A DNA stretch of 64,000 bases from Candidatus Methanoperedens sp. (GTDB taxonomy: Archaea > Halobacteriota > Methanosarcinia > Methanosarcinales > Methanoperedenaceae). The position numbers and the translations under genes were made by a program. Location of the stretch: NCBI GenBank assembly GCA_012026795.1, contig VEPM01000023.1:2455-66454 (forward strand), read 5' to 3'. How positions within the stretch are numbered: position 1 is the stretch's first letter; each line of letters begins with the position of its first letter. Below are positions 1-58,453 of this stretch, piece by piece. The notes beneath the pieces were generated by a model. The model worked only from the letters and a program-made list of their open reading frames with translations. It did not search any database and was not told the origin of the DNA.

Positions 1-26
1 TTTAGACCCACCCCGCAAGGAATAAT

Positions 27-335
27 TTATATTTTGATCTGTTCCGGCAAAAATCCTTTCTTAATAAGAACTTCTTTCATTCTGCTTTTATGATTTCCCT
101 GAAGTTCGATAACATTATCTTTTATAGTACCACCGCATGCGAATTTTGATTTGAGATAAGATGTTAATTCCTGCAAATTAATCTCGCTTGGATTAAGACC
201 ATCGATCACAGTTACTTCTTTTTTATATTTTCGTGTATCTACCTTAATTACTATTCTCTGTTGTTCTTTTGCTACTTCTTCGCAGATGCAAAGCTCTTTT
301 GGCAAACCGCATACAGCACACATTTCTGAACTCAT
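27..335 (-). CDS. sui1: Translation initiation factor aIF1 (SUI1)
   Basis: N-terminal CxxC..C.C ([13 protein letters not shown]), [22 protein letters not shown] motifs of archaeal SUI1. Confidence 0.95.
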
Positions 336-789: not shown

Positions 790-1845
790 ATGACACTCAA
801 AGGAAAATTAACTGGAGATAATGTATTACTTGAAAAAAATGCAATTGAAGAATTGCATAATAAGAGTTATTATGGGCGGCCTAAAGGTGACAACCTCGAA
901 GTTTCTCTTACAGAAACCGCCTTTCTCATTTATATGGGAAAAATAAAAGTTGAATTTGGGGGAAAAGAAATTGGTTTTGAGGATTTTTTCCTGAAAGCAT
1001 CCTCACTACTAAAAAATTTTGAATTATTTTATATCGTTTATAAAGATATGAGGGAACGCGGATATTATGTCCAGCCAGGGGTAACTGGCTTTCGTGTTTA
1101 TCCACGTGGCGGACACCCCGGAAAAACACCTGCTGAGTTTTTCATATTTGTAACATCAGAAAGGATACCTTTATTACTATCCCAGTTAAGGACCCATCTG
1201 GAGACAGTCGAGAACCTTAAAAAACGCCTGGTTCTTGCTATAGTTGACGAAGAAAGTGATATTACATATTACGAAGTGAAAAAAACAGCTCTAACAGGCA
1301 CTTATGAATTAAGATTGGGCAAAAAGTTATCAACTGCGATCCTGCTTGAAGACAGGGTGATGGTCTGGAACCCCGATGCTTCTTTAGCACTTCAAAAAAA
1401 TGGTTTTTTTGGTAAACCTATGGATGAAGGCCACCTGCAACTATCACTTATTGAGTCATGTTATCTTTTAAAAAAAGGGATACTGGACATTGAGAACAAG
1501 AATAAGGAAGTGCTTGATTTTGATAGTTTTTCAAAATCAGCTTCCGATATAGAATCAAATTTCATGGTAAAATATTCTGTGTATGAAAAACTAAGGAATG
1601 ACGGGCTCTTTCCGAAGACAGGATTCAAATTCGGAACACACTTTCGGGTCTATAAGAAAATTGATGATATGACAAAACTGCCCCATTCAGATTATCTTGT
1701 TCATGCAATTGAAGAGGATCATATTTTTTCTCTGCAGCAGCTTTCACGCGCAGTGCGCCTGGCCAACAGCGTAAGAAAAGAAATGATATTTGGTACAGTC
1801 GATTCGCATGTTGATTTTTTTATGATAGGGCGGATGCGACTGTAA
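790..1845 (+). CDS. endA: tRNA-intron endonuclease, internally duplicated (homodimeric alpha2 type)
   Basis: Two repeats; catalytic repeat has KTGFKFGTHFRVY...HS and RLANSVRK. Confidence 0.95.
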   Translation: MTLKGKLTGDNVLLEKNAIEELHNKSYYGRPKGDNLEVSLTETAFLIYMGKIKVEFGGKEIGFEDFFLKASSLLKNFELFYIVYKDMRERGYYVQPGVTGFRVYPRGGHPGKTPAEFFIFVTSERIPLLLSQLRTHLETVENLKKRLVLAIVDEESDITYYEVKKTALTGTYELRLGKKLSTAILLEDRVMVWNPDASLALQKNGFFGKPMDEGHLQLSLIESCYLLKKGILDIENKNKEVLDFDSFSKSASDIESNFMVKYSVYEKLRNDGLFPKTGFKFGTHFRVYKKIDDMTKLPHSDYLVHAIEEDHIFSLQQLSRAVRLANSVRKEMIFGTVDSHVDFFMIGRMRL

Positions 1846-1852
1846 CCTGTAT

Positions 1853-2059
1853 TTATTCTTCTTCTTCTTTCTGTTTTCTTTTTACTACTTTTTCGAGTTT
1901 CTTAGCCCACATATCCTCTACTTTTGTATATTCACACTCAAGGTAATGAGAGACTGCTTTTGCAATTGCATCTTTGGTGCTTGTCTCCCCTGTTTTTTGT
2001 TTAAGGGCTTCAATATCATCTTCTGTAAGAACCGTTTGTGCGTGCATTATTTTTGCCAT
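1853..2059 (-). CDS. Small conserved protein (DUF5371-like)
   Basis: HAQTVLTEDDIEALKQKTGETSTKDAIAKAVSHYLEC; ATG 2059 follows a GGAG SD. Confidence 0.7.
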   Translation of the reverse strand: MAKIMHAQTVLTEDDIEALKQKTGETSTKDAIAKAVSHYLECEYTKVEDMWAKKLEKVVKRKQKEEEE

Positions 2060-7624: not shown

Positions 7625-8029
7625 TTAACCCAGTATTTCCTCAAGTTTCTTATCCAGCTCATCTATTGACCCAATCATTTCAGGGGACTCTTCCTCGTTC
7701 TTTTTTCGTGATGAATAGTATACTTTTTTTCCGACCCGTTCCCGTTTTAGCCAGCCCTCCCTGACAAGTTCATTAAGGTATTTGTTCTCAATTGACCTGT
7801 GGCGGCCTGTCCGGATGCATACTTCATCCGCAGTGGCCTTTGATAATTCTGATACTGCAAAAAGTGATTTTCTTAAACTGTCAGGAATCGTGAGGTATAA
7901 AGCAATCTGGTCTTCTACAACCGGGTGAAGACGCGATTCAATCTCTCCTACCCTGCGTTCAAGTGACTGAAGCCTTTTCTCAAAGACCTTCATATTATCG
8001 TTTGAGTTTGTTCTCATATCTGAATTCAT
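7625..8029 (-). CDS. Coiled-coil plus winged-HTH DNA-binding protein
   Basis: LQSLERRVGEIESRL coil; ATADEVCIRTGRHRSIENKYLNELVREGWLKRERVGKKVYY wHTH. Start shortened to ATG 8029. Confidence 0.8.
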   Translation of the reverse strand: MNSDMRTNSNDNMKVFEKRLQSLERRVGEIESRLHPVVEDQIALYLTIPDSLRKSLFAVSELSKATADEVCIRTGRHRSIENKYLNELVREGWLKRERVGKKVYYSSRKKNEEESPEMIGSIDELDKKLEEILG

Positions 8030-8040
8030 TTTATTTCCAA

Positions 8041-8236
8041 TGCACAAATGCAAGTCGCATAACCTGGAATATGATGAGCAACGTTTGCACATTACAGTAT
8101 ACTGTGCAAGCACATATATATACCTAACCGATGTATTGCGAAAAACAATATGAAATATACATGTAAATGTTGTTTTTTGCACAATAGTTATATACTGGTA
8201 TGAGCATATTATGCAATTGTGAGGAAGTTGCACAAT
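8041..8236. promoter_or_regulatory. Cluster of five TGCACA hexamers in the wHTH/mqnB divergent intergenic region
   Basis: TGCACA at 8041, 8086, 8178 and 8229, and TGTGCA at 8103. Confidence 0.45.
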
Positions 8237-8370
8237 AACGCCTCTTCATCCACCCCTCCATGTTGCAACTTCCCTCAATTTTGATAATAAAGATGAATCA
8301 AATTGTTGAAAATGTTAACATATTGCTAACATATAAAAGCTATATCCAATGAAACAAATATGGCTTCTAT

Positions 8371-16325: not shown

Positions 16326-17864
16326 ATGACAGATGATGGAAAATCAGATGGATTTAATTTTGCAATAATTGCGGTTACTGCCCTATTGGGTTTTCTATCA
16401 GCAATTTATATATATTTTTCAAATTACTCGATTGAAGAGAATTGGTATTCTTATGCTTCTCTTCTAATTCCAATCACATTTGTTTCTATTTTATATTTTC
16501 TTATATATACTACATTACATGGTATTTCGATAAAAATGCGAGATGACATTAAAATGCGGATAGAAATGGTAGCTGATATCGTTTACAATTCTGCTTTTTT
16601 ATTTTTCTTAATAATTTTAGCATACTTTTCAAGTCTAATCTTATCTTACACAAATCCAGATAAATATGTTATAATTGTAATATTTATTTATATAGTAATA
16701 TTCTTATTAATATGGATAATAACTTTGCGCTATTTTTCGTTTTTGTTTTGCTGGGATAAAATTCCAGGAAGAGATACAGAAAAACTGATTGAATTTCTGG
16801 TAGCAAGGAAAAATATTAGGTGGGCAAAAACGGCAGTGGTCGAAAAAATCGATAACGGTTCAACCATAAAGCTATCTGCCGCTGATAACCAGCTTTATCT
16901 AAGACTTAACAAAAAAGAAACCAGGGCCAACTTAAGTATCAATAACGATAGGTATTCGTTTAGCTGGAACGATGTTCCTGGGAACGATAGCGGAAGACTA
17001 AAAAAATTCCTGACACGTAGCTTTGGTATTGATTGGATAAAAGCAGCAAAAATTGAAAAAACAGATGCGGATAGGCTCATAATTATATCTACTAACATGA
17101 AATATCTTTTGTTAAAACTTAATGATGACAAAACCAAGGTAGATTTAATAATCAATGGCGAACGGACCCATGAATTCACCGTGAATAAAATAAACAATTT
17201 GCGAAATATATACGACATCAATTTCAAAGGAAAATCATTTCTTCTTAGATTTGGGATTATTTTAATATCGATTGTGTCTCTTGTTTTGGGGATTTTTTTA
17301 TATAAGTCTTTATATATGCTTGGTTTATTTTTGCTTTCATTTTCCTTAATAATTGCAATTATCCTCTATCAATTCATCGTTCCAAGAGGATATTCCAAAT
17401 GGGGATATGTAATTGCCTCATTTTTTATCTTATTTGGACTAATTATTTGGTCTATATCATTTGTTCCTTTTTCAAATATCGCCAGTGGAGATATTACAAC
17501 CGATATCAATAGCGTTTATTATAAGAATGGTGGTCCAATTCCTGTAACTATTCATGTCACAGGTCCGAATTCGTATATATCAATAGAATTATCGAAATCA
17601 GATAGAGAGAATAATTTATCTAAAATAGATTCGATAGAACGTATAGAACCTAATCACAAGTCAAATATAATTATATCTGGTAATCTTTCTGCCAATTCAT
17701 TTGAAAATGGAAAGTATGGACTTTTTATCAATCCAACGAATTTGAGTCCAGGATATTATGAATTGAATGCTACTCGTCCTCGTTTAAATAATATGAAAAT
17801 AGCTATAAGTGGATTCTATTTATTGAATGATAGTAAGAGTAACTACAATTCACCATCGAATTGA
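16326..17864 (+). CDS. Multi-pass membrane protein with two tandem copies of an 87-aa inserted module and a C-terminal soluble domain
   Basis: About 4 N-terminal TM helices, FxWxxIPGxD repeats at 16740 and 16953, 3 more TM helices, then a beta-rich tail; AT-rich. Confidence 0.75.
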   Translation: MTDDGKSDGFNFAIIAVTALLGFLSAIYIYFSNYSIEENWYSYASLLIPITFVSILYFLIYTTLHGISIKMRDDIKMRIEMVADIVYNSAFLFFLIILAYFSSLILSYTNPDKYVIIVIFIYIVIFLLIWIITLRYFSFLFCWDKIPGRDTEKLIEFLVARKNIRWAKTAVVEKIDNGSTIKLSAADNQLYLRLNKKETRANLSINNDRYSFSWNDVPGNDSGRLKKFLTRSFGIDWIKAAKIEKTDADRLIIISTNMKYLLLKLNDDKTKVDLIINGERTHEFTVNKINNLRNIYDINFKGKSFLLRFGIILISIVSLVLGIFLYKSLYMLGLFLLSFSLIIAIILYQFIVPRGYSKWGYVIASFFILFGLIIWSISFVPFSNIASGDITTDINSVYYKNGGPIPVTIHVTGPNSYISIELSKSDRENNLSKIDSIERIEPNHKSNIIISGNLSANSFENGKYGLFINPTNLSPGYYELNATRPRLNNMKIAISGFYLLNDSKSNYNSPSN

Positions 17865-50980: not shown

Positions 50981-51928
50981 ATGAGTAATGAGACGTACGC
51001 AAGCTCGCCACGGATTTTCAAGGAGCTTCTTGATGAGATAGGGAAAGTTGTTGTTGGCCAGCATGAGGCGGTTGAACACATGATGATAGCGATCCTGTGC
51101 AACAGCCATGCTCTTGTCGAAAGCAACCCTGGCCTGGCCAAGACACTTACGATCAGCACAATTTCAAAAGCGCTTGACCTTAAGTTCAACAGGATACAGT
51201 GCACGCCTGACCTTATGCCATCGGATATCACAGGCACGTATATTATTGAGGATATCGCAGGGAAGAAACAGTACAGGTTTGAACCAGGCCCAGTGTTTGC
51301 CAATATCGTTCTTGCTGATGAGATAAACAGGGCATCGCCAAAGACCCAGAGCGCCCTGCTTGAAGCAATGCAGGAAAAACAGGTAACAGTAGGTAATAAG
51401 ACCTATCCTCTGGATAAGCCGTTCTTTATTCTTGCCACCCAGAACCCCATCGAGATGGAAGGTACATATCCACTCCCTGAAGCGCAGCTTGACCGGTTCC
51501 TCCTTAAGATCCTAATGGACTATCCAACGTTTGAGGATGAGAACGAGATCGTTAACAGATACACTAAAAATATTGTTCCCTCCGTAAAGAGCGTAGTCTC
51601 AAAAGCAGAAGTCCTTGAACTCCAGAAACTCACGCGTGATGTTCCCATAGCAGAAGATATCAAGGTCAGGGCGATTAAGATCGTTGGCGCTACAAGGGGA
51701 AAGAGTGAGCATATTGAATATGGGGCATCGCCAAGGGCTTCTATCGGTATAATACTTGCAGCAAAAGCGCGCTCACTTATGAAAGGCAGGAATTATGTAA
51801 GCAAGGAAGATATCGATGTAATGGCATATCCGGTGCTTCGCCACCGCATCATATTGACATTTGAGTCAGAACGCAAGGGGATGACAACTGATCAGGTCAT
51901 TTCGGATATTCTGAAAAATGTGAAATAG
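50981..51928 (+). CDS. MoxR family AAA+ ATPase
   Basis: ESNPGLAKT, RIQCTPDLMPSDITG, LADEINRASPKTQSALLEAMQE, ATQNPIE, LDRF. Confidence 0.96.
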   Translation: MSNETYASSPRIFKELLDEIGKVVVGQHEAVEHMMIAILCNSHALVESNPGLAKTLTISTISKALDLKFNRIQCTPDLMPSDITGTYIIEDIAGKKQYRFEPGPVFANIVLADEINRASPKTQSALLEAMQEKQVTVGNKTYPLDKPFFILATQNPIEMEGTYPLPEAQLDRFLLKILMDYPTFEDENEIVNRYTKNIVPSVKSVVSKAEVLELQKLTRDVPIAEDIKVRAIKIVGATRGKSEHIEYGASPRASIGIILAAKARSLMKGRNYVSKEDIDVMAYPVLRHRIILTFESERKGMTTDQVISDILKNVK

Positions 51929-51981
51929 ATGTGCATATTGAGACGGTTAAGCGTAAAAACAATTAGTATGGAAGATAACTT

Positions 51982-52833
51982 ATGCTAAACGTAGCTAATG
52001 AACTTTTGTTTAACCCGATGTTAAAGTATTCGGAAATAGGGTGGGATGATAATGAGGCTTTAATAGAGGCATTCAGTGATAGAGTTAAAGGATTTTATTT
52101 AGAGCCAGCCCAAAAATTGAACGATTGTGAAAAATATGCATTTGCGACAGGCGTATTATGCGTATCAACCATCGACTTACTTGCCTGTATAACAATATCT
52201 TGTAATTCAAGGACGGTTGGGACGAGGTTTAAACAATGGGTAAAAGAACACATAACGGCGTTCGATAATTCGAATCCTAATAGTGAAATACTTGCTGATA
52301 AATTTTATAATGAGTTTCGCAATGGACTTGTGCACGAAGGACGAACCAAAAATGTTGGGCAATTTTCGTACGACTACAAAAAAGAATTAGTCCATATAGT
52401 GAAGGAAATGTATTTATTTAACTGGGATAAAATTCCTGGAAACGATAATGAGAAACTTTTAAATTTTATATACAAGTTTTATGGAATTAATTGTGAGAGG
52501 ACGCCTACGATTGAAAAAATAGAAAGTGGTAATACTATAAGGGTTTCTACAGAAAATAACCGTATTTCGATAAAACATGACAATGGAAACAATAAGGCAA
52601 TCCTAACAATCAATGAGCTATTTACTGAAACACTCAGCATAAAGGCCGAAAGCGGTAATTTAAACATCTACAAAATAATGATTTTAGTTAATCCAAACTT
52701 TCTTCTAAAAGAAGTAAACATTGCCTTTGAGAGATATATAAGGAAGGTTAAAAGTGATAATTCTGAATTTTCTAAACTTAAAAAATATTTGGAAAGATTT
52801 AAAGGAGAAATCGAATATGCGAATAGCTGTTAA
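51982..52833 (+). CDS. HEPN-like protein (RNGLVH) with an 87-aa inserted module
   Basis: R-x4-H motif FRNGLVHEG; AT-rich gene between moxR and DUF58; module at 52411-52671. Confidence 0.65.
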   Translation: MLNVANELLFNPMLKYSEIGWDDNEALIEAFSDRVKGFYLEPAQKLNDCEKYAFATGVLCVSTIDLLACITISCNSRTVGTRFKQWVKEHITAFDNSNPNSEILADKFYNEFRNGLVHEGRTKNVGQFSYDYKKELVHIVKEMYLFNWDKIPGNDNEKLLNFIYKFYGINCERTPTIEKIESGNTIRVSTENNRISIKHDNGNNKAILTINELFTETLSIKAESGNLNIYKIMILVNPNFLLKEVNIAFERYIRKVKSDNSEFSKLKKYLERFKGEIEYANSC

Positions 52834-52852
52834 GGCTAAAAAATATAATAAG

Positions 52853-53116
52853 CCGCAGATAAACGCAGATGAACGCAGATTTATTTATCGGTTACATTTG
52901 CGCTTAATTGATTATATTACATTGCAAAAGGCGAAAAGCATAGCAGCGATGTTTTTTGAGACCTTTCTGGCCAGGTCAGGAAAAATTCCAAAATCACAAT
53001 ATAGAACACGGATGACGCGAATCGGATGGATTTTCACGGATCTGTGCGCATTCGCGTCATCCGTGCAATCCGTGTTCCATCTCAATCCATCTGCGTTTAT
53101 CTGCGTTCATCTGCGG
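52853..53116. repeat. Nested inverted-repeat element (MITE/REP-like)
   Basis: Outer arms 52853-52880 and 53089-53116 built from 10-bp RAACGCAGAT units; inner perfect 16-bp arms 53007-53022 and 53050-53065. Confidence 0.85.
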
Positions 53117-53207
53117 TTAATACTTTTAATACAAGAAAAAATATTTATATTTTTCTATAAGTTAAAGAATAAAGCTGATATTATTATTAATCATAAAAGT
53201 GGAATAA

Positions 53208-54068
53208 ATGATAGACACCTCATTCTTTAAAGAACTTGACCGCTTCTCATTCATGGTGCGTAAACGCGTATCCACTGCATACAGTGGAAGCAGGCGCTCT
53301 ATACTCAAAGGCAGGGGAATGGAGCCTGTAAGCTACCGTGAATACACGCAGGGAGACGATTTCAAGACCATAGACTGGAAAGTTTACGGGCGAACTGAAA
53401 AACTTTATGTAAAGGAATTCGAGGAAGAAAAAAGCTTAACCACACATATACTGCTTGATACCAGCAAGAGTATGGATTTTCGCAATAAATTCGAATATGC
53501 AGCGATGATGGCGCTTGGATTTGCATATCTTGTAACCAAGGATAATGAGAAATTCGCGGTTGCAACGTTTGCTGAAGAGATAAATATCACAAAACCCAAA
53601 CGGGGCAGAAAATATCTTTCACTTACAATTGATCTTCTTAACAGCATCCAGCTTCTTGGAAAAACACGTTTTGATTATTGCATGGAAAAATATGCAAGCG
53701 TTATAAGATCAAGGTCACTCGTCTTTATAATTTCTGATTTTATGACGGATATAGAAGCTATCAAGAATTCCATATTCAGGCTCGGTGATAATGAACTTGT
53801 GCTTATACAGGTGCTTGACCCTCTTGAGAGAAGTCTTGACCTTGGCGGAGAAGCAAAATTGATCGACCTTGAGACAGATGCAAAAATGGATATATACACA
53901 AGCCCCAGGCTTCGTGCCGAGTACCAGCAGAGATTAAATGACCATATTGCAAAGATCAGGGAAACCTGTATAACGGTAGGGGCTGATTTTCATATTGTGA
54001 CTGCTGATAAGCCGATCTTCGATTCAATATTTGAAGTTGTGAACTCCAGGGAAGCGGGGAAAATATAG
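53208..54068 (+). CDS. DUF58 family protein
   Basis: YREYTQGDDFKTIDWKVYGRT..LYVKEFEEE, LLDTSKSM, IISDF. Confidence 0.95.
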   Translation: MIDTSFFKELDRFSFMVRKRVSTAYSGSRRSILKGRGMEPVSYREYTQGDDFKTIDWKVYGRTEKLYVKEFEEEKSLTTHILLDTSKSMDFRNKFEYAAMMALGFAYLVTKDNEKFAVATFAEEINITKPKRGRKYLSLTIDLLNSIQLLGKTRFDYCMEKYASVIRSRSLVFIISDFMTDIEAIKNSIFRLGDNELVLIQVLDPLERSLDLGGEAKLIDLETDAKMDIYTSPRLRAEYQQRLNDHIAKIRETCITVGADFHIVTADKPIFDSIFEVVNSREAGKI

Positions 54069-54077
54069 AGGGATGTA

Positions 54078-55961
54078 ATGGCATTTTTAGATTCATTCTA
54101 CGCAAATCCGATGCAATTTGCCAACGAAACCGGACTGTACGCTCTTTTATCAATTATTCCGCTTATTATAATTTATCTTCTCAGGCCAAGAGCAAAAAAA
54201 ATAAAGATCCCTTCTGTCATGTTCCTCCTTGACATTGAAAAGAAAAAACGCCTCAATATTTTCAGGAAATTCCTGAAAGATCCGCTCTTTCTTATCCAGC
54301 TCCTTGCACTTATTATAATGTCACTTTCAGTTGCCGCCCCTTTCATTATGGCGACAGAAGAAGCAGGCGGAGGTTCAACCGTCATTGTCCTTGATGGCTC
54401 AGGAAGTATGCAGGCAGACGGAAAATTCACAAAAGCAGTGGCTGAAGCAAATAAATTCTTAAGCGCCAAAAATACCATCTTTCTTGCCCAGAGTGTTCCC
54501 TTAATGGTAATGAAAGAAGCTCCTGCAAGCAGTGCTACGGATGCTCTGTCAAAACTCAAGGCAAAAGCCACAGGCGTTGACCTGTCAAGTGCTATCCTCC
54601 AGGGGCGAAGGATGCTTCCTGAGGGCGGAAGGATCGTTGTAATATCGGATTTCATAAACTGGGACGGTGACAGTCCCGCAATAGCAAAGAAAGTCGCAGA
54701 AGCAAGCGGCATCAGGGTTGATTTTATCACCGTAAGCGGAAGGACTGATAATATAGGTATCGTTAATGGCTGGTTTGAATCGGGAGGGGATTACAAAGTA
54801 GTTATTAAGAACTTCAATAACGATGCACGGGATGTAAATATCGATGTTACGATAAATGATAAGAACGCAGTTAAGGATACGATCAATGTCAAAGGCATGT
54901 CAAGCGAATATTTCAGCATCAGCGACATCTCCCTTAATCCGGGAATTACGAAGATATCAATAGATTCCAATGACGCTCTTCCTGTTGACAACAACGCCTT
55001 CGTTTATATACCGCCATCAATGCAGCGTGATGTCCTTTATATTACGGATAATCCAAAATCGCCCTCTATTGTTGCTCTCGGTCTTATTCCCAATACAAAA
55101 GTCACAAAAGCAGGCCCGGAAAGCATACCTTCAATGTCGGGTAACATCGTTGTAGTAAGCGCCCCCCTCCCCCAGGATGCGGTTAAAAAACTTGAAGAGT
55201 ACGTCAGCAGCGGAGGGACGGCTGTAATAATTGCATCTCCGGGTCTTACGAATATGTCTCTCCTGCCAGTTGAACCGGGAGCACCCGGGAATAAGACATC
55301 GCTGAATATCGTCCGCCGGACAACCATAACAGATGGTATTGATATTGAGAAAACAGACGTCAGCAGATATTTCAAGGCACGTCTGAAAGAAAATGCAGTA
55401 GGTCTTGTTGAAAGCGGGGATAAAGAAAAATCAGCTATTCTTGCATACTGGAGATTCGGGAAAGGAACAGTTATCTATTCCGGCCTTGCCGATCCCCGGG
55501 GAAATAATATTTATGATCCGCTTAATGAACAGGTCTGGAATGACCTGCATACACTTCCCGATTATCCGCTTTTCTGGAAACAAATGCTTGAATGGATAAA
55601 GGGAAGCCTTGATGTGACTGAATATAATGCAATAACGGGGATGTTAATAAAATTCCCGGCATCTGTAAAAGTGGATACACCCACAGATAAGGTGACAACA
55701 GATACGTTGCTGCTTGATGAGGTCGGTATTTATGACATACCTGGAAAGAGCGTGGCTGTGAACATGTATAATGAACGGGAATCAAACCTTATCAGCAGCG
55801 GGCTTGCTGCCGAGGAATCAAATGTTTCAACTTCACAACATATCGCTTACTCACCTGAAACTATCCGAAAACAAAAGGATCTTGATATTTATTTCATAAT
55901 GGCTGCCATGTTCCTTATACTTCTTGAATTGTATTACCTGCGCTGGAGAGGTGAATTGTAA
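54078..55961 (+). CDS. BatA-domain/vWA membrane protein
   Basis: PLIIIYLLRPR...PSVMFL BatA motif; VLDGSGSM MIDAS; C-terminal TM helix. Confidence 0.88.
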   Translation: MAFLDSFYANPMQFANETGLYALLSIIPLIIIYLLRPRAKKIKIPSVMFLLDIEKKKRLNIFRKFLKDPLFLIQLLALIIMSLSVAAPFIMATEEAGGGSTVIVLDGSGSMQADGKFTKAVAEANKFLSAKNTIFLAQSVPLMVMKEAPASSATDALSKLKAKATGVDLSSAILQGRRMLPEGGRIVVISDFINWDGDSPAIAKKVAEASGIRVDFITVSGRTDNIGIVNGWFESGGDYKVVIKNFNNDARDVNIDVTINDKNAVKDTINVKGMSSEYFSISDISLNPGITKISIDSNDALPVDNNAFVYIPPSMQRDVLYITDNPKSPSIVALGLIPNTKVTKAGPESIPSMSGNIVVVSAPLPQDAVKKLEEYVSSGGTAVIIASPGLTNMSLLPVEPGAPGNKTSLNIVRRTTITDGIDIEKTDVSRYFKARLKENAVGLVESGDKEKSAILAYWRFGKGTVIYSGLADPRGNNIYDPLNEQVWNDLHTLPDYPLFWKQMLEWIKGSLDVTEYNAITGMLIKFPASVKVDTPTDKVTTDTLLLDEVGIYDIPGKSVAVNMYNERESNLISSGLAAEESNVSTSQHIAYSPETIRKQKDLDIYFIMAAMFLILLELYYLRWRGEL

Positions 55962-58453
55962 TGGCTTTCACGATACCCCAGTTTGAGAACCCTTATATCC
56001 TTTTACTTATCAGCCCCCTGATCCTTGCAGGGTTGTATTATATACGCAAAGGTGTTTCGAAGTGGATCATATTTTCACGCGTCATCATCCTGAGCCTTTT
56101 GGTTATTGCCCTTGCCTCGCCTTATTCGTTAGGCATAACTACGGTGCGTGACGATACACCAAGAATAACTGTGATTTCGGATAATACATTCAGCATGGAC
56201 CTTTTCAATAAAGATGCCGGGAAAAAGATATTTGATGCGCTACAGCCCAGGACACCCACGAAATTCAGGGAATTCGCAGGTATCAAATCACCAATAGGCG
56301 ATGAGGTGATAGGAGCCTCAGAAAACAATAATCTATTACTTGTAACAGATGGGAACGCCAATTACGGAAAAGACCTTTTCGATGCCATCTCACTTGTTTC
56401 CCAGGCAGGGACAAAAGTGTTTGCTGTGAAACAAAAACCAATCCATAATGATGCAAGTGTCGAGATTGTAAGCGCCAAGAATATCATTATCGGGAATGAA
56501 AATGTGTTTAATGTTGTTGTAAGGCAGGCAGGAACCTATATCGTTTACAGGCTTGATGTGGAGATAGATGGAAAATCAGTAATGAGCGAAACATTTTCGC
56601 AGACTGAACGGGAAAAAGTAATTCCTGTCACAGGTGCATTTAAAAATCTTGGTTCGCACAAAATGAAAGCAACCATTACGCCCAGCGGGGAAGACAGGTT
56701 CCAGTTAAACAATGTATTCTATAAATCCATATTCGTTGTGCCAAAACCAAAGTTACTTGCAGTAACGGGCGATACGGGATCGCCTCTTTATACAATTACG
56801 AATAGCCTATATGATGTTACTACCGTGAGCTCCCTGCCACCGGATCTTTCACCATATAAAACCGTGATAGTAGATAATAAGGGAGCGAATGAGTTACCTG
56901 CCGAAAACTTGCGGAATTATGTGGGAAATGGCGGCGGGCTTGTGGTTGTTGGCGGAGAATTATCATATGATCGTGGGGCTTACAATAATTCGCCGGTTGA
57001 AGCGATACTACCTATAATATCAAGGGCCGGGGAATTCAAAGGCGGAAGAAATGTTATTATCTTAATTGATTCATCGGGAAGCACTGGAATAGGGTCACCT
57101 TCGCCCATCAGTCTTATCGATGCTAATGCCATAAGCATCATCCGGGGCATTGGACAGGACAGTCGTGTCGGTGTGGTGGCATTCAGCGGTATAACAAAAC
57201 AGACTAATATATTATCGATGAGTTCAGAAGCGAATAAAGCAGAACTTGAGAGTTTCGTAAGTGAGATAGGACCCGGAACAAGGGGAGGGGAGAACCCTAC
57301 CGACCTTGATAAAGGACTCCGCGCTTCTGACGAATTATTGAATTCGGTGACCGGTACAAAAGAGATAATAGTCATATCTGATGGATTAATAGATCCTAAA
57401 GGTCTTACCCAGACCAAAAATACAGTATTAGATTTAGTAGCTAAAGAAACAAAAATACAATTCATTCAAATTCTCTTACCCACAAATGCAAAGATACCTA
57501 ACGATAACTATGATATACTGGCAAAAGCAGCCAGCACTGATGTAATACTTTTGTATCCCGATGAACGGGCAAGCACCTTAATAGGGGAAGGCCCGTCCTC
57601 CACTCCGGCACCTGCCCAAACTCCCTCCGTAACTTACGAATATCCCCTCACGATAGTAGACGCCAACCATTTCATAACAAAATACATCAATATTTCAGCC
57701 TCGATAACAGGATATAACGACGTAATTCCAAAACTGGGCACAGACCGCCTCGTAGCAACCTCGCGCGGGAAGCCTATCCTTACAACGTGGGGCTTTGGTC
57801 TTGGCCGGGTTGTTTCCTTCACAACAGATAACGGTAATCCATCCGGTGACCCATCCAGACCCTGGGCAAGCGAGATTTATAGCGGCGAGAACTCGCGCCT
57901 TATTTCATCAATGATAAACTGGGCGATCGGGGACCCGCGCCCGAAAGAAGGAGATGTGATTCAGGCAGAGGATATCTGGGCCGGAACAGCAGGCAGGGTC
58001 ATTGTCACATCAAACAAGCAACCTCCGGTCGTGCAACTTGACGGCGCGCCTCTTGATCTTTCAAGGACAGGGCCTACCACATACGAAACAACGATCAATC
58101 TTGAGACAGGGGATTTCCATGATATTTCAGGATATGGGATTGCTGTGAATTATCCCCTGGAATACAGGGAGATCGGGTTCAATGATAAACTGAATGACGT
58201 CATTGCATCAAACGGCGGACGTGTGTATAATGAAGATGAGGTCCAGGGGCTTATGTTCCTGGATATCAAGGAAAAAGCTGTGCGGACTGTGAATGAGCCA
58301 AAGAGTGAAAAAAAACCATATCTTCTTGCTGCGCTTGTGTTATTCCTGGCAGAAGTTGTGATCAGGAGGCTGAAAGATTACAGGAAAGACAGGCCTGTGA
58401 TAGAGGAGAATCCACCGAGAGTGGCGTCTGTGGCTGAAGAAGTTGTGCAATAG
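55961..58453 (+). CDS. vWA plus GATase-like membrane protein
   Basis: ISDNTFSM, TDGNANYG, GGGLVVVGGELSY, LIDSSGST, GLGRVVSFTTD. Confidence 0.85.
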   Translation: MAFTIPQFENPYILLLISPLILAGLYYIRKGVSKWIIFSRVIILSLLVIALASPYSLGITTVRDDTPRITVISDNTFSMDLFNKDAGKKIFDALQPRTPTKFREFAGIKSPIGDEVIGASENNNLLLVTDGNANYGKDLFDAISLVSQAGTKVFAVKQKPIHNDASVEIVSAKNIIIGNENVFNVVVRQAGTYIVYRLDVEIDGKSVMSETFSQTEREKVIPVTGAFKNLGSHKMKATITPSGEDRFQLNNVFYKSIFVVPKPKLLAVTGDTGSPLYTITNSLYDVTTVSSLPPDLSPYKTVIVDNKGANELPAENLRNYVGNGGGLVVVGGELSYDRGAYNNSPVEAILPIISRAGEFKGGRNVIILIDSSGSTGIGSPSPISLIDANAISIIRGIGQDSRVGVVAFSGITKQTNILSMSSEANKAELESFVSEIGPGTRGGENPTDLDKGLRASDELLNSVTGTKEIIVISDGLIDPKGLTQTKNTVLDLVAKETKIQFIQILLPTNAKIPNDNYDILAKAASTDVILLYPDERASTLIGEGPSSTPAPAQTPSVTYEYPLTIVDANHFITKYINISASITGYNDVIPKLGTDRLVATSRGKPILTTWGFGLGRVVSFTTDNGNPSGDPSRPWASEIYSGENSRLISSMINWAIGDPRPKEGDVIQAEDIWAGTAGRVIVTSNKQPPVVQLDGAPLDLSRTGPTTYETTINLETGDFHDISGYGIAVNYPLEYREIGFNDKLNDVIASNGGRVYNEDEVQGLMFLDIKEKAVRTVNEPKSEKKPYLLAALVLFLAEVVIRRLKDYRKDRPVIEENPPRVASVAEEVVQ

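Follow-up and report, generated by a model that had tools for sequence, protein, structure and literature searches.

We analysed a 64-kb window of the archaeon Candidatus Methanoperedens sp. (64,000 nucleotides of contig VEPM01000023.1; all window positions given below refer to this stretch), in which two unrelated protein-coding genes share a module of 87 amino acids. Host gene 1 (16326-17864, plus strand) codes for a membrane protein of 512 aa with a soluble C-terminal part following its transmembrane (TM) blocks. Host gene 2 (51982-52833, plus strand) codes for a protein of 283 aa, which is composed of a helical family of about 190 aa, the element under study and the duplication that accompanies it. 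Both open reading frames (ORFs) are present as described in a first-pass annotation of the window, and neither of the two proteins matches any Pfam or NCBIfam family. The module and the 262-bp DNA element that encodes it are the subject of this report.

The module occurs three times in the window, always on the plus strand. Copy A (16739-16951) comprises the first 213 bp of the element, i.e. module residues 1-71 (nhmmer positions 1-213, E 1.1e-36). It is directly followed by copy B (16952-17213), a complete element consisting of a leading G and 87 codons (nhmmer positions 1-262, E 3.8e-52). Copy C (52410-52671), located in host gene 2, is complete as well (nhmmer positions 1-262, E 3.3e-44). 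Translations of 16740-16952 (71 aa), 16953-17213 (87 aa) and 52411-52671 (87 aa) are identical with those noted earlier, and the two full copies indeed align without gaps at 26/87 identities. Similarity between the window copies is far beyond chance: BLASTP yields E = 1e-11 for one full copy against the other and E = 3e-17, at 40% identity, when the truncated copy is compared with that of host gene 2. No fourth copy was found in a six-frame scan of the window with a hidden Markov model (HMM) built from the three copies. In host gene 1, a hydropathy scan detected four hydrophobic 19-mers ahead of the modules (aa 12-133) and three behind them (aa 305-380); the modules, which occupy aa 139-296, thus sit between TM blocks. 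The boundary of the 262-bp unit was defined by nhmmer together with inverted-repeat analysis. A unit of 261 nt had been proposed originally; this is right for the span of 87 codons, but the DNA unit is one base longer and starts one base earlier, with the G at 16952 and 52410, respectively.

When 1.84 billion representative proteins were searched exhaustively with the profile, 1,978 representative clusters passed E <= 1e-3 and 1,388 passed E <= 1e-10. These cluster numbers rest on the exhaustive HMM search; another homologue search with the module profile, nearly blind to the family, returned 2 matches each time. Hosts are between 85 and 5,223 aa long, with 1-12 copies each. Among 76 host proteins, 66 different Pfam families were recognised, and the contexts include Baseplate_J, Tail_P2_I, pentapeptide, TPR, RAMP, KAP NTPase, GAF, YEATS, S-layer and replication factor C (RFC). 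The module itself matches no Pfam or NCBIfam family. The initial proposal that one 87-aa module resides in unrelated proteins is therefore borne out by the host count, and the module is not a characterised domain confined to one architecture.

At the DNA level, copies of the element have well-defined ends. The consensus starts with G TAT TTG TTT AGC T... and terminates with ...A GCT AAA CAT ATA C, which form imperfect terminal inverted repeats (TIRs) of 14 bp, 5'-GTATWTGTTTAGCT ... AGCTAAACATATAC-3', in which position 5 is a conserved T:T mismatch. Their complementarity amounts to 67-95% per position over positions 1-14 and ends sharply at position 15; its mean is 10.8/14 in register as compared with 3-5 out of register. 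Many loci contain the exact TIR 14-mer on opposite strands at a distance of 262 bp. In 73% of 64 copies from genome loci, a G stands immediately 5' of the first codon. Inside the element, the three codon positions carry on average 1.14, 1.19 and 0.75 bits of information, respectively, whereas third positions at both ends reach 1.0-1.4 bits. Codon 4 occurs as AGC, TGC, AAC or ACC (S/C/N/T), while Tyr1 is encoded by TAT and Tyr87 by TAC. Since third positions are conserved, codon 4 is varied and the codons of the two terminal tyrosines differ, constraint at the element ends acts on DNA and not on protein. The peptide end motifs YLFSW and KLNIY are translated TIRs.

Length of the element is nearly fixed. 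Exactly 87 residues are present in 134 of 206 full protein copies. As an independent sample, metagenome contigs were scanned with a perfect pair of TIRs spaced by 225-245 nt as the sole condition, which provided 41 loci with 43 elements; 41 of the elements measure exactly 262 bp. Apart from a young subfamily described below, the interiors of perfect-TIR elements are only about 65% identical, so the ends are held far tighter than the body. Some copies contain extra internal segments, namely the one at L006 3001-3306, with 15 residues (TFHLLQQTHTPQDRV) ahead of GKLNIY, and a 103-aa copy at L076; such segments arose inside the element by secondary insertion or as indels.

Sequences adjacent to the module are duplicated. 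In 212 full copies, the tripeptide ahead of the module and the one behind it agree at 33, 28 and 23% per position; other registers or assumed lengths give tripeptide agreement of only 5-17% (binomial P 2e-54 for the true register). The tripeptide duplication is perfect in 13 copies, for example KNG, KQL, EKT, KGE, ETP, SKE, QKA, EIP, ERS and KEG. When the flanks of the 64 copies from genome loci are compared as DNA, eight consecutive positions agree at 56-72%, against a background of about 30%, and agreement drops to only 17% at the ninth, which is the base 5' of the first codon. Because the match stops at this position, the unit consists of 262 bp (G + 261) and is accompanied by an 8-bp duplication, 270 bp altogether. 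Among the 43 perfect-TIR elements, flanks are identical at 8/8 positions in 20, at 7/8 in 6 and at 6/8 in 7, whereas the number of 8/8 duplications expected by chance is 0.005. The tripeptides flanking each module are thus the translated target-site duplication (TSD), the first G of the element completing a host codon. Since 262 + 8 = 270 bp correspond to 90 codons, the host frame is never shifted by insertion. The consensus of the TSD is RAN-RAN-RN in genes, and A- or T-rich 8-mers are found outside genes.

Sites devoid of the element were identified for two host families. About 100 homologues of the host gene 2 product, of both bacterial and archaeal origin and about 190 aa in length, lack the module. 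They read ...FSYxxxELVxxxKGxMLVNP..., whereas the window protein reads ...ELVHIVKEM, followed by 87 aa and then by KIMILVNP...; the single K-x-x-M of insert-free homologues corresponds to a K-x-M tripeptide that is doubled in the window. The two copies of this duplication are located at 52402-52409 (plus strand; AAGGAAAT, which encodes K-E-M together with the G of the element) and 52672-52679 (plus strand; AAAATAAT, 5/8 identical to the left one and encoding K-I-M). Only three Methanoperedens relatives (97, 75 and 72% identity) have the insertion in common, so it is old but lineage-specific. The other example is an RFC small subunit, an essential part of the clamp loader (P0055, 535 aa), in which residues 4-181 and 387-529 align to Archaeoglobus RFC-S (2chq_A). 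Here a nested double copy adds 207 residues in a loop after residue 181 of the AAA+ module; residues 177-181 of the reference chain are aligned twice and ESI stands on either side of the insert as a perfect duplication (ESI/.../ESI). Orthologues lacking the module, which had been anticipated for a mobile element, therefore exist. For host gene 1, the metagenome scan revealed no homologues without the module.

Taken by its anatomy, the element shows small size (within roughly 50-600 bp) with sharp ends, TIRs, a TSD of fixed length, dispersed copies along with empty sites, and no encoded transposase. [quoted passage not shown]

The element is frequently found inside its own copies. About 25 of the 150 best proteins display the layout [1..k][1..87][k..87], and one of them (P0017) is doubly nested. 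Examples are P0033 (2-47/1-87/47-87), P0036 (1-40/1-87/40-87), P0101 (2-27/1-87/27-87) and P0022, where the pattern occurs twice. In the 40 nested junctions listed, three residues are repeated on either side, as in NSK/../NSK, FCV/../FCV and VGK/../VEK. Break points are situated at residues 8-10, 25-32, 37-42, 48-50, 55-61, 68-71 and 80-83, and coincide with loops of the AlphaFold2 model of the module (see below). Since they fall in predicted loops, the module apparently stays in the protein and must not break its fold. Such nesting is not a pattern given by domain shuffling. Unequal crossing-over in tandem arrays was considered as well and rejected, as it cannot yield [1..k][1..87][k..87] with an overlap of three amino acids.

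Copies A and B of host gene 1 were originally regarded as tandem. A truncated and a full copy are adjacent indeed, but they are better read as a nested insertion, because about 25 other proteins are nested likewise, two of them (P0005 and P0146) at the same break point. Copy A is probably the older one, with copy B inserted at its residue ~71. A possible remnant of the tail of copy A (DINFKGK; 17214-17234, plus strand) follows copy B and enters the next TM helix. It is weak: after in-silico removal of copy B, the HMM alignment of copy A reaches position 78 instead of 71, with a gain of 2.6 bits. The tail is almost lost and its remainder is now the start of the TM helix. The left TIR of copy A is degenerate (GTTTTTGTTTTGCT, 2 mismatches). 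Copy B has 1 mismatch in its left TIR (GTATTCGTTTAGCT) and 3 in the right one (17200-17213), and its flanking 8-mers, AACGATAG and GACATCAA, match at 3/8 positions; the duplication of copy B is decayed. In copy C, the left TIR (GTATTTATTTAACT) contains 2 mismatches and the right one (52658-52671) contains 3. Both copies of host gene 1 are present in all the related strains of runs X6-X8. The three window copies are old, fixed and degenerate insertions.

Further, we examined reading frames of the element and its position relative to genes. All 64 copies are open in the sense frame and closed in four others; the one remaining frame, which is antisense, is open in 14/64. As the other five frames almost always carry stops, a genic insertion is readable in only one orientation and phase. 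Over 490 kb of genome loci, 133/133 DNA-level matches are sense copies in open frames. Elements with perfect duplication are more varied: out of 19 distinct ones, 12 lie in frame in long ORFs, 2 near a C-terminus and 5 between genes (L094, L097, L101, L116, which has an internal stop, and L118). These young intergenic copies have TSDs rich in T or in A, in either orientation (CTTTTTTT, ATTCTTTT, CGTTTTTC, GAAAAATG and AAAAAAAT). Copies that are not internal to an ORF make up 7/19 of elements with perfect TSD versus 0/19 of those with decayed TSD (Fisher P = 0.008). Insertion is thus not restricted to ORFs, since the youngest copies include intergenic ones. The genic bias fits the prediction of a survivorship filter, to which target bias may add. 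Five copies (L093, L094, L099, L116 and L118) are 91-95% identical, reside at different loci, each with a perfect TSD, and three of them are intergenic. The near identity of these sequences points to recent transposition.

Several individual loci deserve a comment. Two antisense ORFs overlap the modules in the window, at 16895-17227 (minus strand, 110 aa) and 52479-52667 (minus strand, 62 aa). They are most likely by-products of element composition, given the proportion of copies in which one antisense frame is open. At L001 484-756, a free-standing ORF of 90 aa corresponds to the element alone, whose perfect TIRs lie at 480-493 and 728-741; probably the element landed between genes and was annotated as one. 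A frameshifted copy occurs at L002 407-809. On one 10-kb contig, L111, the same element is found twice with identical flanks in inverted orientation (1746-2007, plus strand, and 7987-8248, minus strand), which is probably a palindromic assembly artefact.

Concerning taxonomic distribution, one genome per species was scanned with a tight alignment, as the diverse alignment lacked a sufficiently conserved stretch. Copies are mostly found in Ca. Methanoperedens. The window belongs to this group as well: its host gene 2 product is 97% identical to a protein of an NCBI Methanoperedens MAG, and its DNA recurs in bioreactor metagenomes. They are also present in other anaerobic methanotrophic archaea (ANME), namely ANME-2 HR1, Methanophagales (ANME-1) and Ca. 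Methanovorans (ANME-3), in Altiarchaeales/Altarchaeum and in a few differently labelled bins. Some copies lie on contigs binned as Patescibacteria (L041), Anaerolineales (L042) or Halobacteria (L054 and L058). The copies on these contigs could represent mis-binned ANME DNA or real horizontal spread. IMG/VR viral contigs contained no copies. Two peptide subfamilies with the same TIRs were distinguished: ...NSLSLKLNDEKTKV... is dominant in Methanoperedens, and ...NSAEIMIDEKKEKA... is commoner in ANME-1 and some marine bins. The distinction was noticed in copies from Methanophagales and from several bins labelled as Methanobacteriota or Halobacteria. The literature searched contains no earlier description of the element, and one may exist beyond that scope.

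The interior of the element is under purifying selection: pairwise ratios of nonsynonymous to synonymous substitution rates (dN/dS), computed for codons 6-82, amount to 0.33-0.44 whatever the divergence class. The copy of host gene 2 was modelled by AlphaFold2 together with 43 diverse copies. The module alone is predicted with pLDDT (predicted local distance difference test) of 94 and pTM (predicted template modelling score) of 0.84, and it consists of a short strand at 3-4, a helix at 13-24 and strands at 33-37, 42-46, 51-57, 62-67, 71-80 and 83-86. Foldseek returned no significant match of the module in PDB (best E 0.13) or BFVD (best E 0.04). In the model of the whole host gene 2 product, strand 137-147 runs from the host into the first strand of the module, and strand 226-236 from the last strand of the module back into the host. 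This prediction is consistent with termini of the module leaving a host hairpin side by side.

We conclude that the module is very probably the in-frame translation of a 262-bp, non-autonomous, MITE-like DNA transposon, the whole body of which is one ORF. The first-pass annotation had suggested a mobile module tolerated in loops, possibly a selfish coding element. The former is supported and the latter can now be specified as a DNA transposon with 14-bp TIRs and 8-bp TSD, the proposed check for duplications being positive. Neither of the two results that had been named beforehand as refuting mobility, i.e. a characterised domain confined to one architecture or absence of orthologues lacking the module, holds. 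An interaction or localisation tag, mentioned as an alternative at that time, is not needed for explaining the data.

The behaviour of the element could be explained as follows. A DDE-type transposase acting in trans would cut at the TIRs and integrate the element at A- or T-rich 8-mers throughout the genome. Genic insertions in wrong phase or orientation would truncate the protein and be purged, and intergenic copies would be neutral and decay. Sense insertions in phase 0 that hit surface loops would add a compact beta-alpha-beta6 domain, whose terminal strands would exit the host loop side by side, so that the host protein would still fold. Copies tolerated in this way would persist for a long time, with purifying selection acting on the peptide. 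Among element lineages, a self-folding body would be selected for, which would turn coding sequence into a safe landing zone. We are slightly in favour of the view that the entire transposon body has turned into a "stealth" domain, whose termini emerge together and which is harmless in nearly any surface loop. As a further step, the duplicated tripeptides and terminal strands might form a beta stalk; if so, duplication at the DNA level would itself be part of the structural solution.

A confident fold, dN/dS of about 0.35, old copies kept in relatives and arrays of up to 12 copies in some proteins would also suit an ordinary promiscuous domain (for interaction, localisation or sensing), spread by duplication, recombination or shuffling and kept as useful. 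However, shuffling gives neither a fixed 8-bp duplication at junctions nor 14-bp TIRs with conserved synonymous positions. Clean nesting and intergenic copies with perfect duplication, one of them carrying an internal stop, would remain unexplained, and catalytic domains as unrelated as RFC AAA+ and KAP NTPase are interrupted by insertions. We regard a promiscuous domain as very improbable. The element might alternatively be a transposon whose in-gene copies have been domesticated, the added domain being beneficial, for example as a shared binding surface recruiting hosts to a partner. Such benefit would agree with dN/dS <1 in all divergence classes, with the excess of in-frame copies even among young insertions (12/19) and with enrichment of hosts for conflict and surface systems (Baseplate_J, Tail_P2_I, RAMP, KAP, pentapeptide and TPR); surface-facing conserved residues are possible, too. 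On the other hand, hosts are extremely heterogeneous, frequent self-nesting would disrupt a functional surface, constraint is moderate, as for mere fold maintenance, and neither a partner nor a shared context was seen among the hosts. Domestication appears unlikely to us.

Preference for coding DNA might also arise at the moment of insertion, if this were directed to sense strand and phase, for instance by an A-rich target specific to one strand or by a link with transcription. Lys, Glu and Asn codons of the sense strand fit the TSD consensus RAN-RAN-RN, and even elements with perfect TSD are more often in frame than intergenic. Yet 5/19 young copies are intergenic, with T- or A-rich TSDs in either orientation, and transposases that act as symmetric complexes are not known to be able to read codon phase; insertion targeted in this manner is quite unlikely. 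Finally, a selfish element could be removed after transcription or translation, being a new kind of intron or intein, and the host protein would never carry the module. This would help to understand its presence in essential conserved proteins such as the RFC small subunit, RFC being a classic intein host. The termini are adjacent in the predicted structure, and TIRs could pair in RNA. Nevertheless, the earlier remark that intein motifs are missing proved right: the consensus YLFSW...KLNIY has no Pfam Hint/intein match and no conserved nucleophile. Inteins are marked by Cys or Ser at the N-terminus, TxxH in block B, His-Asn at the C-terminus and Cys, Ser or Thr at +1. Protein splicing was rejected on account of missing Hint motifs, Y/F/C/H at position 1, the N-I-Y end and a variable +1 residue derived from the duplication. 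A bulge-helix-bulge or other intron was rejected as well, since removal of 262 nt shifts the frame and loop-specific nesting implies retention; insertion points follow loops of the fold, which is relevant only if the module is retained. RNA data are thin, with almost no coverage in run X23 and one contig across the right junction of copy C in run X24, and no skipping joints were seen in them. Excision is exceedingly improbable, and the module is most likely retained in the mature protein.

Several points weigh against the transposon interpretation as formulated above. No transposase was detected between matching TIRs 0.6-5 kb apart, either in the window or in 122 loci; at a spacing of 0.3-6 kb, TIR pairs are only nested composites and chance matches, and the window contains housekeeping genes and no transposase. 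Because no autonomous partner was found in the loci or the window, the enzymatic step is deduced solely from TIR and TSD anatomy. TIRs and TSDs of the window copies are decayed (5/8 and 3/8 for the latter), and these copies are assigned by their membership in the family. Pairing of terminal strands was read from secondary-structure strings of the model, not from coordinates. The sole contig spanning a junction comes from an ambiguous "WGA" library, and retention of the module in mRNA and protein is inferred. Lastly, the in-frame genic excess among the youngest copies (12/19) exceeds that given by random insertion and tolerance; some target bias (compare the TSD consensus) or a positive benefit may contribute.

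The surroundings of copy C are of interest on their own. Host gene 2 is flanked by a MoxR ATPase gene and a DUF58/vWA gene, and lies within a row of MoxR (AAA_3), DUF58, BatA/vWA and vWA genes at 50981-58453. Its family of about 190 aa, widespread in bacteria and archaea and without Pfam model, possesses an invariant FRNGLVHEGR motif and is an uncharacterised partner of MoxR/vWA systems. R113-x4-H118 is invariant across 44 homologues. The whole-protein model depicts a helical protein (pLDDT 91.3) that has no Foldseek match below E 1e-2. The earlier designation "HEPN-like" goes back only to the Rx4H motif in a helical protein and finds no backing in Pfam, NCBIfam or Foldseek matches. The spacer between host gene 2 and the DUF58 gene harbours a second, different MITE-like element (52848-53121), single-copy in the window, with imperfect inverted repeats of about 38 nt that consist of CGCAGATRAA sub-repeats and lie 198 nt apart. 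A spurious ORF (52754-53230) and the C-terminal extension of the relative P0155 read through this spacer element. Both its arms also occur in RNA contigs of runs X25 and X26, which originate from another locus.

Rickettsia palindromic elements (RPEs), reportedly described by Ogata et al. in Science in 2000 (290:347), are about 100-150 bp long, palindromic and confined to Rickettsia; they encode short segments, and their description includes no fixed TIR/TSD mechanism. In a 2024 review of MITEs, RPEs are the sole frequent case of in-frame insertion, and ANME archaea do not appear there (PMC10969869). Both RPEs and the archaeal element are short, multi-copy selfish DNA found in frame in many unrelated genes, with a peptide compatible with the host fold (PMC10969869). 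The archaeal element differs in its 262-bp length with 14-bp TIR and 8-bp TSD, in self-nesting and in its spread over about 2,000 host clusters, and it encodes a self-folding alpha/beta domain of 87 aa under purifying selection. Likened by description and not by sequence, RPEs may be taken as the closest precedent and a functional analogue. Classical prokaryotic MITEs (Correia/NEMIS, ERIC, Nezha and Sulfolobus SM elements) resemble the archaeal element in being small, non-autonomous and multi-copy, in having TIRs and a fixed TSD and, presumably, in being mobilised in trans. On the contrary, they are mainly intergenic and non-coding, their in-frame fusions being incidental, whereas the archaeal element has one open frame for a folded domain and its long-lived copies are almost all genic. 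Inteins and mini-inteins are selfish as well, sit in frame in conserved proteins (RFC among them) and have adjacent termini and a peptide under selection; the archaeal element lacks Hint motifs, junction nucleophiles and homing endonuclease, and has TIRs and a TSD instead. In eukaryotes, transposon sequence becomes host coding sequence by exonisation of Alu elements or MITEs. These events, however, are splicing-dependent rare accidents of non-coding elements, whereas the archaeal element is translated directly and appears to be shaped for translation.

The element described here suggests that mobile DNA is selectable for foldability of its own translation, and that transposition, besides recombination, can drive large-scale domain insertion in prokaryotic proteins. 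An abundant unannotated "domain" of methane-oxidising archaea, with about 2,000 clusters, is explained without assigning it a cellular function. For annotation this is a warning, since tandem or nested "repeat proteins" in genomes of methane-oxidising archaea are transposon pile-ups. The 8-bp duplications and nested copies provide a clock and a record of insertions, and the hosts amount to a natural test of where, among the loops of various proteins (essential RFC included), an insert of 87 residues is tolerated. Together with its putative transposase, the element could become a tool for in-frame domain-insertion mutagenesis. If the "stealth" domain view is true, the domain would be harmless even in the element's own copies and in essential replication proteins. 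Coding sequence, which makes up about 88% of an archaeal genome, would then be a safe harbour for a mobile element, and a natural domain-insertion engine would operate across the proteomes of ANME archaea and Altiarchaeales.

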